A stretch of 64,000 nt of DNA from Escherichia coli (lineage in GTDB: Bacteria; Pseudomonadota; Gammaproteobacteria; Enterobacterales; Enterobacteriaceae), in the NCBI RefSeq assembly GCF_030384885.1, contig NZ_CP128613.1; one strand, written 5' to 3'. Of this stretch, positions 8,298 to 22,368 are shown one piece after another (the first letter of the stretch is position 1; each line of letters opens with the position of its first letter). The translations under genes were made by a program, and so were the position numbers. The notes beneath the pieces are model-generated. The model was not told the DNA's origin. It did no database searches and saw only the letters and a program-made list of their open reading frames with translations.

Positions 8298-8408
8298 TTA
8301 ATTTGATCGCCTGAACAGGAATGTTTGGGCGATTTTTATTACGACAATAAAGTCTGTTTTTAATATTATCATGTTAAATGTTTATATTATAAAAAGTCGT
8401 TTTTCTGC

Positions 8409-8428
8409 TTAGGATTTTGTTATTTAAA
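8409..8428. promoter_or_regulatory. GAD box (GadE/GadX-dependent activation site) of gadA promoter
   Basis: Exact TTAGGATTTTGTTATTTAAA 20-mer about 80 bp upstream of gadA ATG. Confidence 0.7.
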
Positions 8429-8507
8429 TTAAGCCTGTAATGCCTTGCTTCCATTGCGGATAAATCCTACTTTTTTATTGCCTTCAAATAAATTTAAGGA
8501 GTTCGAA

Positions 8508-9908
8508 ATGGACCAGAAGCTGTTAACGGATTTCCGCTCAGAACTACTCGATTCACGTTTTGGCGCAAAGGCCATTTCTACTATCGCGGAGTCAAAACGA
8601 TTTCCGCTGCACGAAATGCGCGATGATGTCGCATTCCAGATTATCAATGATGAATTATATCTTGATGGCAACGCTCGTCAGAACCTGGCCACTTTCTGCC
8701 AGACCTGGGACGACGAAAACGTCCATAAATTGATGGATTTGTCGATCAACAAAAACTGGATCGACAAAGAAGAATATCCGCAATCTGCAGCTATCGACCT
8801 GCGTTGCGTAAATATGGTTGCTGACTTGTGGCATGCGCCTGCGCCGAAAAATGGTCAGGCCGTTGGCACCAACACCATTGGCTCTTCCGAGGCCTGTATG
8901 CTCGGCGGGATGGCGATGAAATGGCGTTGGCGCAAGCGTATGGAAGCCGCAGGCAAGCCAACGGATAAACCTAATCTGGTGTGCGGCCCGGTACAAATCT
9001 GCTGGCATAAATTCGCCCGTTACTGGGATGTGGAGCTGCGTGAAATCCCTATGCGCCCCGGTCAGTTGTTTATGGATCCGAAACGCATGATTGAAGCCTG
9101 CGACGAAAACACCATCGGCGTGGTGCCGACTTTCGGCGTGACCTACACCGGTAACTATGAATTCCCGCAACCGCTGCACGATGCACTGGATAAATTCCAG
9201 GCCGACACCGGTATCGACATCGACATGCACATCGACGCCGCCAGCGGTGGCTTCCTGGCACCGTTCGTCGCCCCGGATATCGTCTGGGACTTCCGCCTGC
9301 CTCGTGTGAAATCGATCAGTGCTTCAGGCCACAAATTCGGTCTGGCTCCGCTGGGCTGCGGCTGGGTTATCTGGCGTGACGAAGAAGCGCTGCCGCAGGA
9401 ACTGGTATTCAACGTTGACTACCTCGGTGGTCAGATTGGCACTTTCGCCATCAACTTCTCCCGTCCGGCGGGCCAGGTAATTGCACAGTACTACGAGTTC
9501 TTGCGCCTCGGTCGTGAAGGCTATACCAAAGTACAGAACGCTTCCTACCAGGTAGCTGCCTATCTGGCAGATGAAATCGCCAAACTGGGGCCGTATGAGT
9601 TCATCTGTACCGGTCGCCCGGATGAAGGCATCCCGGCGGTTTGCTTCAAACTGAAAGATGGTGAAGATCCGGGATACACCCTGTATGACCTCTCTGAACG
9701 TCTGCGTCTGCGCGGCTGGCAGGTTCCGGCCTTCACCCTCGGCGGTGAAGCCACCGACATCGTGGTGATGCGCATTATGTGCCGTCGTGGCTTCGAAATG
9801 GACTTTGCTGAACTGTTACTGGAAGACTACAAAGCCTCCCTGAAATACCTCAGCGATCACCCGAAACTGCAGGGTATAGCCCAGCAGAACAGCTTTAAAC
9901 ACACCTGA
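8508..9908 (+). CDS. gadA: glutamate decarboxylase alpha (PLP-dependent)
   Basis: 466-aa product starting [12 protein letters not shown] at internal ATG of the 487-aa track ORF; PLP-lysine region [19 protein letters not shown]. Confidence 0.95.
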
Positions 9909-10276
9909 TAACATAATTTTGTAAAAACCGAATGCCCCGACCTTAAAAAACAGGTGGGGTATTCGGTTACTTATTCATGCAATAATATATTGGCTGTTTA
10001 TTCATCGTGTTGATAAGATATATGTTATATGAATGTTATTAAGGGTGGCAGGACCGTTTAATATCACAATAAGGGATTATTTGCTTACTAATAATTTCTC
10101 TGCGTTTTTAACGCCTTTTTTTGTATTATAAATCCAGTTATCCAGCCCGATTATCATCACACATCATCATCCTGTTTTCCCGCTTCGTTTAAATTTATTT
10201 ATCAATCAATTTGACTTAAGAGGGCGGCGTGCTACATTAATAAACAGTAATATGTTTATGTAATATTAAGCCGACT

Positions 10277-11101
10277 ATGCAATCACTACATGGTAATTGT
10301 CTAATTGCGTACGCAAGACATAAATATATTCTCACCATGGTTAATGGTGAATATCGCTATTTTAATGGCGGTGAACTGGTTTTTGCGGATGCAAGTCAAA
10401 TTCAAGTGGATAAGTGTGTCGAGAATTTTGTATTAGTTTCAAGGGACACGCTTTCATTATTTCTCCCGATGCTCAAGGAGGAGGCATTAAATCTTCATGC
10501 ACATAAAAAAGTTCCTTCGTTACTCGTTCATCACTGTACCAGAGATATTCCTGTTTTTCAGGAGGTTGCGCAACTATCGCAGAATAAGAATCTGCGCTAT
10601 GCAGAAATGCTCCGTAAAAGAGCATTAATCTTTGCGTTGTTATCTGTTTTCCTGGAGGACGAGCAGTTTATACCGCTGCTTCTGAACGTTTTGCAACCGA
10701 ACATGCGAACACGAGTTTGTACGGTCATCAATAATAATATCGCCCATGAGTGGACATTAGCCCAAATCGCCAGCGAGCTGTTGATGAGTTCAAGCCTGTT
10801 AAAGAAAAAATTGCGCGAAGAAGGTACGTCATATTCACAGTTGCTTACTGAGTGTAGAATGCAACGTGCTTTACAACTTATTGTTATACATGGGTTTTCA
10901 ATTAAAAGAGTCGCAGTGTCCTGTGGTTATCACAGCGTGTCGTATTTCATTTACGTTTTTCGAAATTATTATGGGATGACGCCCACAGAGTATCAGGAGC
11001 GATCGGCACAAGAATTGCCGAACCGTGACTCGGTGGCAAGTATTGTTGCACAAGGGAATTTTTACGGCACTGACCGTTCTGCGGAAGAAATAAGATTATA
11101 G
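10277..11101 (+). CDS. gadX: AraC-family acid-resistance regulator
   Basis: 274-aa ORF, C-terminal AraC HTH, AT-rich, position after gadA. Confidence 0.92.
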   Translation: MQSLHGNCLIAYARHKYILTMVNGEYRYFNGGELVFADASQIQVDKCVENFVLVSRDTLSLFLPMLKEEALNLHAHKKVPSLLVHHCTRDIPVFQEVAQLSQNKNLRYAEMLRKRALIFALLSVFLEDEQFIPLLLNVLQPNMRTRVCTVINNNIAHEWTLAQIASELLMSSSLLKKKLREEGTSYSQLLTECRMQRALQLIVIHGFSIKRVAVSCGYHSVSYFIYVFRNYYGMTPTEYQERSAQELPNRDSVASIVAQGNFYGTDRSAEEIRL

Positions 11102-20831: not shown

Positions 20832-20873
20832 TCTGTGTGGTAGCGAAATCACACTCGCCACCCTACTGGAAAT

Positions 20874-21404
20874 TCACACCAGATAATCAATATGCTGATG
20901 GCGTACCAACTCATTGATCCGCTTAAGATTGAGGATCATCATGATATTGTGTTTATGGCAGTAGAACGTTTTTAGCGATATTTTCAGTTTCTCCAGAATA
21001 TCTTCCGTTGTCATTTGATTCGCAATACAGCTTAGAACCTGATGCTGCTTGCGCGAAAGGGACACATCCGCTTCAGGCACAGAGCAGTAACTGCCATTGA
21101 TGAGTGCGACAAAGTCGATGATGGTGATAGTTCGCGGAACAAAGGTCACCGGTACTTTCCCCAGGCAGCGTTTAATATTAAAGGGAGAGAAAATAATCAC
21201 ATGGACAGGTTTTAATCGTTCAATCTGAGTGAGCAAATTAGAATGAAATACATTATTCATTAATGTATCAATAATGACGAAGGCATGCTGATGCAACATT
21301 ACGTCGATCTCTTCTTCGTTCTGTATATGAACGACATTACCTTTGCTCAGAATGTTTTTCATCGCAGTGAAGAACATCGTATCCCTGGTAATTATAAGAA
21401 ACAT
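20874..21404 (-). CDS. dctR: LuxR-family regulator DctR (YhiF)
   Basis: 176-aa ORF, C-terminal LuxR HTH, downstream of slp on same strand. Confidence 0.9.
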   Translation of the reverse strand: MFLIITRDTMFFTAMKNILSKGNVVHIQNEEEIDVMLHQHAFVIIDTLMNNVFHSNLLTQIERLKPVHVIIFSPFNIKRCLGKVPVTFVPRTITIIDFVALINGSYCSVPEADVSLSRKQHQVLSCIANQMTTEDILEKLKISLKTFYCHKHNIMMILNLKRINELVRHQHIDYLV

Positions 21405-21556
21405 AACCGACTCCTGGTGCGGACATTAACTTTATAATCAGTTTGCCAAAGGTAATTAACAGGACAGGGCTTATAATAATAGTTAGCTGGCTGTGTATTA
21501 ATTTGATGCAATGCATGATGCAGATGCTGAGAAAGCATCTGCATCTCTCGGTGGTG

Positions 21557-22123
21557 TTATTTGACCAGCTCAGGTGTTACTTGACTCACCGCATTGGTGT
21601 AGTAAGGCGCGCCCCAGCCCGGTTCCGGCCAGAATGCACCATAGCCGTAATCCCACAGGTTATAGGTGGTATTAACCACTTCTCTCAAATGCCACACCTG
21701 GATGCCCTGCATATTCACTTCCAGGAAGTTATACGGGACTTTATTGATAAAGCCAGGTTGTTCACCCTGAATGGTACCGAGGATGGTAACAAAGTGATTA
21801 CGATAGTTCACTGGATCAAGGAAGCCGCTTTGTCTGGCGAGCAGTCGGCCCTGATAGTTGGCTTCAATATCAGGCTTCGCATAGCTATCCAACGGTAATA
21901 CAGCGATTTCTAACAACGTATCCGTTTTGCCATTGATAACGTTGATAACCTTCCCGCCAAAGCGCGCTTGTTGACCAACATATAACCCCGGCTGGTTATG
22001 AACAGCAACAAAACTTTTTTGAATATCAGGTTGGTTATTGCCTTTGATATTTTGCGGAATTGAACTACATGCGGCAAGCAAAAATGAAAGGCTGAGGATG
22101 AGTGCACCTTTTGTCATGTTCAT
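21557..22123 (-). CDS. slp: starvation-inducible outer membrane lipoprotein Slp
   Basis: 188-aa product from internal ATG (MNMTKGALILSLSFLLAACSS, lipobox LAAC). Confidence 0.9.
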   Translation of the reverse strand: MNMTKGALILSLSFLLAACSSIPQNIKGNNQPDIQKSFVAVHNQPGLYVGQQARFGGKVINVINGKTDTLLEIAVLPLDSYAKPDIEANYQGRLLARQSGFLDPVNYRNHFVTILGTIQGEQPGFINKVPYNFLEVNMQGIQVWHLREVVNTTYNLWDYGYGAFWPEPGWGAPYYTNAVSQVTPELVK

Positions 22124-22368
22124 GTTACTATCCTTATCAACAAATATTAAAACCATAATAGATATTTCTTTATAGTTTTCATCTGATTCTGAGGCGATAT
22201 GCCTGATAGTAACGTAAACCTGTCTGATGTTTATATCCATTCTGTTTAGTTTAATTCTGTTAATTTTGGGGCGTGACATGAGTATCCATCGCCCCATAAA
22301 ATAGCCTTTTTTTAAAGGTACATAAAATCTATTTTTATTCAATGCTTATAAAGCGCTAATGTTCAATA

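Follow-up and report, generated by a model that had tools for sequence, protein, structure and literature searches.

Dar and Sorek (2018, PMC6061677) described a class of stable stem-loops that lack U-tracts, lie at the 3' ends of mRNAs terminated by Rho and are directly followed by rut sites. Intrinsic terminators are represented in the acid fitness island of Escherichia coli by those of the small RNAs ArrS, GadY and GadF, all of which have a terminal U-run (TCTTTT in ArrS, T8 in GadY and GadF). Here we analyzed a 64,000-nucleotide stretch of E. coli DNA (the window; contig NZ_CP128613.1) in which a palindrome follows hdeD. The hairpin that it encodes resembles the three intrinsic terminators in being a GC-containing hairpin that ends a transcription unit, but unlike them it has no U-run in any lineage. 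With the class of Dar and Sorek it shares a stable hairpin that lacks a U-tract, a steady-state 3' end directly after the stem (in K-12), C-rich, G-poor RNA past the stem and a bicyclomycin-sensitive region further downstream; it differs from that class in that the hdeD end is a low-count 'orphan' found in one condition, and in that trimming and stabilization are here processes that we infer. We consider it probable that the palindrome is an ordinary protective stem-loop capping the 3' end of the hdeD mRNA, a transcript that Rho would terminate.

The sequence of the interval from 8298 to 22368 identifies it as the E. coli acid fitness island, arranged as slp-dctR / yhiD-hdeBA / hdeD / gadE-mdtEF / gadW / gadX-gadA. 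This agrees with the original prediction, as gene content and order are those of the slp-gadA island of K-12: slp, dctR, yhiD, hdeB, hdeA, hdeD, gadE, mdtE, mdtF, gadW, gadX and gadA fall in a single collinear alignment to K-12 b3506-b3517, with 96.4% nucleotide identity over 15.8 kb, all coding sequences mapped full length and the window carrying the reverse complement of the K-12 orientation. The genes and their order are the same in K-12, and the GAD box, GadY, ArrS and GadF sequences are identical to those of the window, whereas yhiS, beside slp, is intact in the window and split by IS5 in K-12. At least 80% of the interval is present in 5406 genomes; the allele is divergent, with strain 2013C-4282 as the best match at 99.4% and most genomes at ~96.5%. 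The island had also been described as an AT-rich block running from gadA through slp, a description that holds in part. The interval has a lower GC content (45.4%) than the left flank (49.7%) and the sequence beyond 24600 (52.2%), but gadA, mdtE and mdtF reach 53-54% GC, and the low-GC zone extends outside the interval, past slp through yhiS, with 36.0% GC at 22369-24600. The island is thus a GC mosaic and not one AT-rich block. Coordinates are collected in Table 1.

Table 1. Features of the acid fitness island and of the hdeD-gadE region, in window coordinates.
Feature	Position	Strand	Basis or remark
GAD box (GadE/RcsB site) upstream of gadA	8409-8428	+	exact 20-mer TTAGGATTTTGTTATTTAAA
gadA	8508-9908	+	K-12 annotation mapped; 96.6% identical to K-12; GC 54.0%
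gadX	10277-11101	+	GC 41.3%
GadY sRNA, antisense to gadX 3' UTR	11117-11222 (K-12 coordinates mapped)	-	Rfam RF00122 and K-12 identity
gadW	11469-12197	+	K-12 annotation mapped
mdtF	12559-15672	-	GC 53.1%
mdtE	15697-16854	-	GC 54.1%
GadF sRNA, gadE 3' UTR	17004-17094	-	91/91 nt identical to annotated K-12 gadF
gadE	17193-17720	-	GC 33.7%
ArrS antisense sRNA, gadE 5' leader	18032-18101	+	terminator at 18071-18101
Nearly invariant block, gadE far-upstream region	18312-18356	-	39/45 columns invariant across Escherichia species
C-rich, G-poor stretch, candidate Rho-utilisation site	18441-18470	-	C10/G2 in 30 nt
Position equivalent to K-12 Term-seq RNA 3' end (3,657,621 +)	18465	-	mapped from PMC7815308
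Palindrome, probable hdeD mRNA 3' stem-loop (14-bp arms, 5-nt loop)	18469-18501	-	fold, compensated changes, conservation
hdeD	18519-19091	-	K-12 annotation mapped
hdeA	19346-19678	+	K-12 annotation mapped
hdeB	19794-20120	+	K-12 annotation mapped
yhiD	20184-20831	+	K-12 annotation mapped
dctR	20874-21404	-	K-12 annotation mapped
slp	21557-22123	-	K-12 annotation mapped

The regulatory elements of the island, like the island itself, are textbook components of E. coli acid resistance and are already known. The exact GAD box anticipated upstream of gadA is present, 80-99 nt ahead of the gadA ATG; the same 20-mer is quoted as a characterized GadE site (PMC4918353), and shuffled sequence gave no GAD box match even with three mismatches allowed. 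GadY, predicted from a minus-strand terminator between gadX and gadW, was recovered at that place by a full-length match to its Rfam family (11112-11225, minus strand; 150 bits, the gathering score being 45); it shows 100% identity with K-12 gadY, and the K-12 Term-seq position of its 3' end maps to 11117. For ArrS, the plus-strand hairpin with T-tract predicted in the gadE leader was called by the terminator scan (18071-18095, with TCTTTT directly after it) in a sequence that matches the annotated K-12 arrS at 70/70 nt and runs antisense to gadE, 312-381 nt ahead of its ATG, and the K-12 Term-seq 3' end, which has very high read counts, maps to 18101, the predicted T-tract. The Rfam match also expected for ArrS did not appear at E<=10 in a relaxed search of 16800-19400, which returned chance matches only; Rfam 15 may lack an ArrS family, and the missing match does not count against ArrS. 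A further small RNA that the original prediction had not listed, GadF (described in PMC5145812), matched Rfam ES205 (RF02754) at 17004-17075 on the minus strand with 105 bits against a threshold of 86.

The palindrome itself had been reported as a perfect 13-bp inverted repeat that corresponded to no recognized site. The repeat is exact (GGATCATAGTCAC/GTGACTATGATCC at 18470-18500) and its arms reach 14 bp in the window, the hairpin beginning 18 nt past the hdeD stop codon. It folds with -30.2 kcal/mol in a 91-nt context (z = -8.4), and the 37-nt hairpin element alone with -23.7 kcal/mol. The window contains ~8 distinct perfect inverted repeats whose arms measure 11 bp or more, compared with 0.2 of that size, and none with arms of 13 bp or longer, in first-order Markov simulations of it. 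The promoter and terminator scan called neither kind of element at the palindrome, no Rfam family matched it at relaxed threshold over 16800-19400, and its sequence was found in none of the papers searched; in two papers that mention hdeD, gadE and an "inverted repeat", the term denotes the YdeO box ATTTCA or possible AppY repeats and not this site. An origin as a REP/BIME element or as the end of a mobile element was rejected, as the palindrome is single-copy: the median number of places per genome is one for its 221-bp context, and we take the two places per genome found for the 31-mer to be both strands of a single site.

Conservation of the palindrome follows its pairing. Of 5426 complete E. 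coli genomes, 5412 carry it, 3931 of them in identical form and 1477 with one mismatch; among five one-mismatch genomes that were read, four carried loop variants and one a change in the closing pair. Between the window and K-12 the 31 bp show zero substitutions, although the spacer diverges most in this part (88-90% identity). In E. albertii, E. whittamii, Escherichia sp. E1V33 and strain E69, GCCTC...GAGGC replaces GGATC...GATCC, which amounts to two fully compensated pairs, and the 14th pair of the stem alternates between T-A and C-G among lineages. Across species, 94.3% of cells are paired on the sense strand, compared with only 23-46% in slid registers, and 11 double-change cells were observed versus 4.7 in shuffles, with 0 of 500 shuffles reaching 11; 8 of the 14 stem pairs are invariant, so that the evidence from pairing comes from three covarying pairs and few independent events. 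Every lineage variant of the hairpin folds (-18 to -26 kcal/mol), and conservation is 0.88-0.89 in the stem, 0.62 in the loop and 0.67 in the spacer. A Dam/SeqA role was considered and rejected, as E. albertii, E. whittamii, E1V33 and E69 have lost both GATC sites of the arms but retain the pairing. In Kluyvera, whose HdeD has 57% amino acid identity, an unrelated perfect 12-bp inverted repeat lies 15 nt past the stop codon, also without a U-tract; an unrelated hairpin at the same position fits a structural rather than a sequence-specific role.

Published K-12 data map an RNA 3' end close to this structure. The 31-bp palindrome of K-12, at 3,657,586-3,657,616, is identical to that of the window, and the 3' end data are the published K-12 data: Term-seq (M63 sheet, supplementary file 1) reports an hdeD-strand 3' end at 3,657,621 (+), 5 nt past the stem (PMC7815308). 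This end is modest: it has ~1150 reads, was called in M63 glucose but in neither of the other two conditions, and is classed as 'orphan', its distance of 54 nt from the stop codon exceeding the 50-nt limit (PMC7815308). A Rho termination region is reported ~110 nt further on, at 3,657,733 (+) (PMC7815308), with a Rho score of 6.8 and a significance of 2e-20; the score is computed over 800-nt windows, of which the downstream one spans the gadE promoters, and bicyclomycin induction of gadE, rather than read-through from hdeD, could contribute to it. The TERMITe supplements hold no hdeD entry. Immediately past the stem, the C-rich, G-poor stretch is suggestive only as a rut site. Further downstream, the nearly invariant block carries ATGGCTGA at 18318-18325, a match to the AppY motif ATGSCWGM, which has been placed over the -35 of gadE P3 (PMC10057817); we tentatively assign the block to gadE P3.

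The putative mechanism for the formation of the hdeD 3' end has the palindrome working at the RNA level, in transcripts of hdeD sense (window minus strand). Transcription of hdeD would pass through the hairpin, after which Rho would load on the C-rich, unstructured RNA just past it and halt transcription ~100 nt further, ahead of the conserved block assigned to gadE P3. Subsequent trimming by 3'-to-5' exonucleases back to the stable 14-bp stem would give the hdeD mRNA a protected 3' end at a defined place, a few nucleotides past the hairpin, and the stem would presumably stabilize the mRNA. Observed features of the locus are the hairpin, the compensated changes that conserve it, the K-12 RNA 3' end and the bicyclomycin-sensitive region downstream; the order of events, the rut site, the trimming and the stabilization are our inference. 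Read as a stem-loop, the palindrome can be annotated as a conserved hdeD mRNA 3' structure backed by covariation across Escherichia species, a modest new point; this reading accounts for the 'orphan' Term-seq 3' end of K-12 and closes the question that the original prediction had left about the palindrome without the need for a new regulator. Its importance beyond a tidy annotation is small, and the biology is overall ordinary and known.

The closest competitor to this protective stem-loop is a non-canonical intrinsic, Rho-independent hdeD terminator, in which the 14-bp stem alone would release RNA polymerase a few nucleotides downstream. The very stable stem directly after hdeD and the discrete K-12 RNA 3' end 5 nt past it are both compatible with such a terminator, but no U-tract follows the stem in any of the 14 lineages compared, the tails (AAUUAAUAC, GAUUAAUAC, AUAUAACAC and similar) not being U-rich, and the consensus terminator scan did not call the hairpin. 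The bicyclomycin-sensitive region ~110 nt downstream implies that transcription passes the hairpin. Overall, we consider intrinsic termination unlikely.

Two readings that give the site a regulatory role are less probable still. One, for which we see a slim chance, is that the hairpin and the C-rich tract, beyond passively capping the mRNA, act as a regulated insulator that controls the amount of GadE-activated read-through from hdeD into the gadE P3 region, or that the duplex palindrome is bound by a further regulator; an insulator, if true, would provide an extra feedback input to gadE. The other, slightly more doubtful, takes the palindrome as duplex DNA, an operator whose dimeric transcription factor would act on hdeD or on the far-upstream control region of gadE. 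An operator would explain the perfect two-fold symmetry of a 13/14-bp repeat with a 5-bp spacer, the conserved core TCATAGTCAC...GTGACTATGA around a variable center and the location at the border of the upstream control region of gadE, to which many regulators bind; a dimer co-evolving with its site would also fit the symmetric changes of the two half-sites. However, the GadE, GadW and GadX ChIP-exo tables (PMC4918353) contain no peak at 3,655,609-639 (older K-12 numbering), while peaks at hdeA, hdeD and gadE are present, and binding of GadE or GadX to the palindrome, for which a test had been suggested originally, finds no support in this check of published tables. The sequence is likewise unmatched in the papers searched and has no other copies in E. 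coli genomes, the Kluyvera hairpin occupies the same position with an unrelated sequence, and an RNA end maps to the foot of the palindrome.

A functional hairpin on the window plus strand, antisense to hdeD, at which transcripts entering hdeD from the gadE leader or the ArrS side would be stopped or processed, is highly improbable. Cross-species pairing is slightly better on that strand (97.1% versus 94.3%, with more G-U cells) and a second plus-strand hairpin with a T-run follows in the window only, but the K-12 Term-seq tables show no nearby 3' end on the plus strand, ArrS already ends efficiently at 18101 and the second hairpin with its T-run is broken in K-12. That additional hairpin overlaps the hdeD stop codon (~18505-18530) and, not being conserved in K-12, was taken as chance. 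G-U wobbles used as a strand test gave four antisense-friendly versus three sense-friendly events and pick no strand; the variants of strain E69, and of E7-1N7 with its U-G pair, favor the sense strand.

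ORF listing, K-12 RefSeq annotation and BLAST all bear out the assignment of 8298-22368 to the E. coli acid fitness island, and alignment to the K-12 island returned one collinear BLAST match of 15.8 kb at 96.4% identity, in reverse-complemented orientation relative to K-12. At least 80% of the interval is present in 5406 of 5426 complete E. coli genomes; since its best match, strain 2013C-4282, reaches 99.4% and the majority of genomes are ~96.5% identical, the window represents a somewhat divergent allele or lineage. The least K-12-like island segments are the gadA-gadX spacer (9909-10276, 88.3%) and the slp-yhiS spacer plus the first part of yhiS (22124-22600, 88-93%); gadE, slp and the hdeD-hdeA spacer retain 98.5-99.1% identity.

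Genes of the acid fitness island in the window
Gene	Position	Strand
gadA	8508-9908	+
gadX	10277-11101	+
gadW	11469-12197	+
mdtF	12559-15672	-
mdtE	15697-16854	-
gadE	17193-17720	-
hdeD	18519-19091	-
hdeA	19346-19678	+
hdeB	19794-20120	+
yhiD	20184-20831	+
dctR	20874-21404	-
slp	21557-22123	-

The description of gadA through slp as one AT-rich block held only in part. The interval has a lower GC content (45.4%) than the left flank (49.7%) or the sequence past 24600 (52.2%), but it is a mosaic in which gadA (54.0%), mdtE (54.1%) and mdtF (53.1%) exceed the window mean and the low values fall in gadX and gadW (~41%), gadE (33.7%) and the segment from hdeD to slp (38-46%). AT-richness also overruns the proposed end through yhiS, with 36.0% GC across 22369-24600. 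Outside the original interval, yhiS (22369-23592, minus strand), which is split by IS5 in K-12, is an intact 407-aa ORF here and, with the AT-rich zone to ~24500, has the lowest GC content of the surrounding sequence (31-36%).

The exact GAD box proposed upstream of gadA was recovered as the 20-mer TTAGGATTTTGTTATTTAAA at 8409-8428 without mismatch, where none is expected by chance; this sequence is quoted as a characterized GadE site (PMC4918353). Both proposed small RNAs were likewise confirmed: GadY gave a full-length Rfam match of 150 bits (106/106 nt identical to K-12), and 18032-18101 on the plus strand is the annotated K-12 arrS (70/70 nt), the Rfam search returning no match at the ArrS position at E<=10. 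ArrS ends in a hairpin at 18071-18095 followed by TCTTTT, and a very abundant K-12 Term-seq 3' end falls exactly on this T-tract (PMC7815308). Cis-antisense regulation by both RNAs is documented, as is their action in trans (PMC5145812). GadF, an sRNA of the gadE 3'-UTR at 17004-17094 on the minus strand (Rfam ES205, 105 bits; 91/91 nt identical), had been missed; this omission and the GC mosaic are the corrections to an otherwise supported interpretation. All three sRNAs are invariant relative to K-12, against an island-wide difference of 3.6%. Elsewhere in the window, Rfam matched two AgrB-family RNAs at 27909-27991 and 28142-28226 (minus strand; the K-12 agrA/agrB pair) and ES036 (CssrF) at 37005-37045 (minus strand).

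The perfect palindrome downstream of hdeD, originally left unnamed with 13-bp arms, is real and has 14-bp arms and a 5-nt loop in the window (18469-18501); on the hdeD strand it begins 18 nt past that gene's stop codon. In simulated sequences of matching first-order composition, perfect inverted repeats numbered 0.2 for arms of 11 bp or longer and zero for 13 bp or longer. Folded within 91 nt of its sequence, the palindrome reaches -30.2 kcal/mol (z = -8.4). Its 31 bp are unchanged in K-12, and the portion of the hdeD-gadE spacer that hosts them is the most divergent (88-90% identity). Across the 5426 E. coli genomes the palindrome is single-copy in 5412, with the 31-mer identical in 3931, at one mismatch in 1477 and at two in 4. 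Among five one-mismatch genomes examined, four carry loop variants (TTTAT or ATTAA) and one a change in the loop-closing pair; the TTAAT loop of two species representatives likewise differs by one change, and in one of the four two-mismatch genomes a C-to-U stem change still allows U-G pairing in the hdeD-sense RNA. Adjacent to the palindrome, a plus-strand hairpin GCAATAGGGATAATTATTGC followed by TTTTT (~18505-18530) overlaps the hdeD stop in this lineage only and, being broken in K-12, is probably a chance occurrence.

A scan of species-representative genomes with HdeD gave loci in E. albertii, E. whittamii, Escherichia sp. E1V33, strain E69, two more Escherichia lineages and also Kluyvera cryocrescens. 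In the four Escherichia lineages of non-coli type, ~16 nt extra separate the hdeD stop codon from the hairpin, the loops are unlike that of E. coli, and the arms are GCCTCATA...TATGAGGC versus GGATCATA...TATGATCC, with two base pairs altered in both arms; at the 14th pair, some lineages have T-A and others C-G. Over ten distinct palindrome sequences, pairing holds in 94.3% of cells on the sense strand and in slightly more, 97.1%, in the antisense orientation; G-U evidence picks neither strand. With the register shifted by 1-3 columns, the paired share drops to 23-46%. Double-change cells number 11 versus 4.7 in shuffles (0/500 reach 11), a covariation signal comprising three pairs and few independent events. 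All variants fold, at -18 to -26 kcal/mol. The stems are conserved at 0.88-0.89, level with the neighbouring coding sequence, compared with 0.62 for the loop, 0.67 for the spacer and 0.71-0.74 downstream. In Kluyvera (HdeD 57% identical), a perfect 12-bp inverted repeat of unrelated sequence, likewise lacking a U-tract, lies 15 nt past the hdeD stop. These comparisons indicate that the conserved feature after hdeD is a strong hairpin rather than a particular sequence. At the hdeD 3' end of NZ_CM135183.1 (strain Z1324SEC0014), an IS903B-family insertion lies between the hairpin and the bulk of the gene. The 8.6-kb contig NZ_JAUFQN010000010.1, under the label Flavobacterium paronense, encodes a HdeD 97% identical to the window protein, with 254 nt of aligned downstream sequence K-12-like save for a few single-base differences and indels; the contig looks like E. 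coli contamination of that assembly.

In K-12, Term-seq in M63 glucose places an hdeD-strand 3' end at 3,657,621 (Adams et al. 2021, PMC7815308), which lies 5 nt beyond the stem in the printed sequence and corresponds to window 18465. This low-count end was called in a single condition out of three and carries no name or annotation in that published dataset; its 'orphan' label stems solely from its distance of 54 nt from the stop, the limit for 'primary' being 50 nt (PMC7815308). The bicyclomycin table lists a same-strand Rho termination region at 3,657,733 (window 18353, just upstream of the conserved block that we assign below to gadE P3), whose Rho score of 6.8 (significance 2e-20) is not clean proof of hdeD read-through because its 800-nt downstream window takes in gadE promoters (PMC7815308). 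The RNA directly past the stem is C-rich and G-poor (C10/G2 in 18441-18470). Dar and Sorek described Rho-terminated mRNAs whose steady-state end lies immediately past a stable stem-loop without a U-tract, the stem blocking 3'-5' exonucleases and a rut site lying directly downstream (PMC6061677). The palindrome and the K-12 RNA end match this pattern, with the Rho region and the C-rich RNA suggestive of it, and we therefore read the palindrome as the probable protective 3' stem-loop of the hdeD mRNA. Beyond what is observed (hairpin, covariation, RNA end and bicyclomycin-sensitive region), Rho would load onto the C-rich stretch past the stem, an exonuclease would trim the hdeD transcript, and the stem would stabilise the mRNA.

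A non-canonical intrinsic terminator is a possible alternative, which the strong hairpin might suggest; the U-tract is missing, no conserved T-run follows on either strand, a terminator scan did not call the palindrome, and transcription running on to the Rho-sensitive region fits such a terminator poorly. That the palindrome serves as a duplex-DNA operator for some factor is very improbable: the GadE, GadW and GadX ChIP-exo tables list hdeA, hdeD and gadE peaks and none at this site (PMC4918353), none of the papers searched contains the sequence, E. coli genomes hold no second copy, and the Kluyvera hairpin at the equivalent position is unrelated in sequence. A Dam-site role was rejected because both GATC sites are gone in other species while pairing is kept, and a REP element was excluded by the single-copy site. 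The palindrome is most likely a conserved yet ordinary mRNA 3' stem-loop, and all findings on it and on the island belong to already-known biology.

Within the otherwise fast-evolving hdeD-gadE spacer lies a nearly invariant 45-bp block (18312-18356, minus strand; 39/45 columns unchanged, including E. albertii). It holds ATGGCTGA at 18318-18325, which resembles the GadX/GadW motif and matches the AppY motif that has been placed over the -35 of gadE P3 (PMC10057817); we assign the block, from this match, as the putative gadE P3 promoter. A second perfect inverted repeat, at 21517-21545 (minus strand; 12-bp arms, 5-nt loop, no U-tract), lies in the slp-dctR spacer 12 nt past the slp stop and is identical in K-12; searched as strings, the Adams et al. 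tables gave no coordinates starting 36545 or 36546. The repeat may serve slp as an intercistronic stabiliser hairpin.
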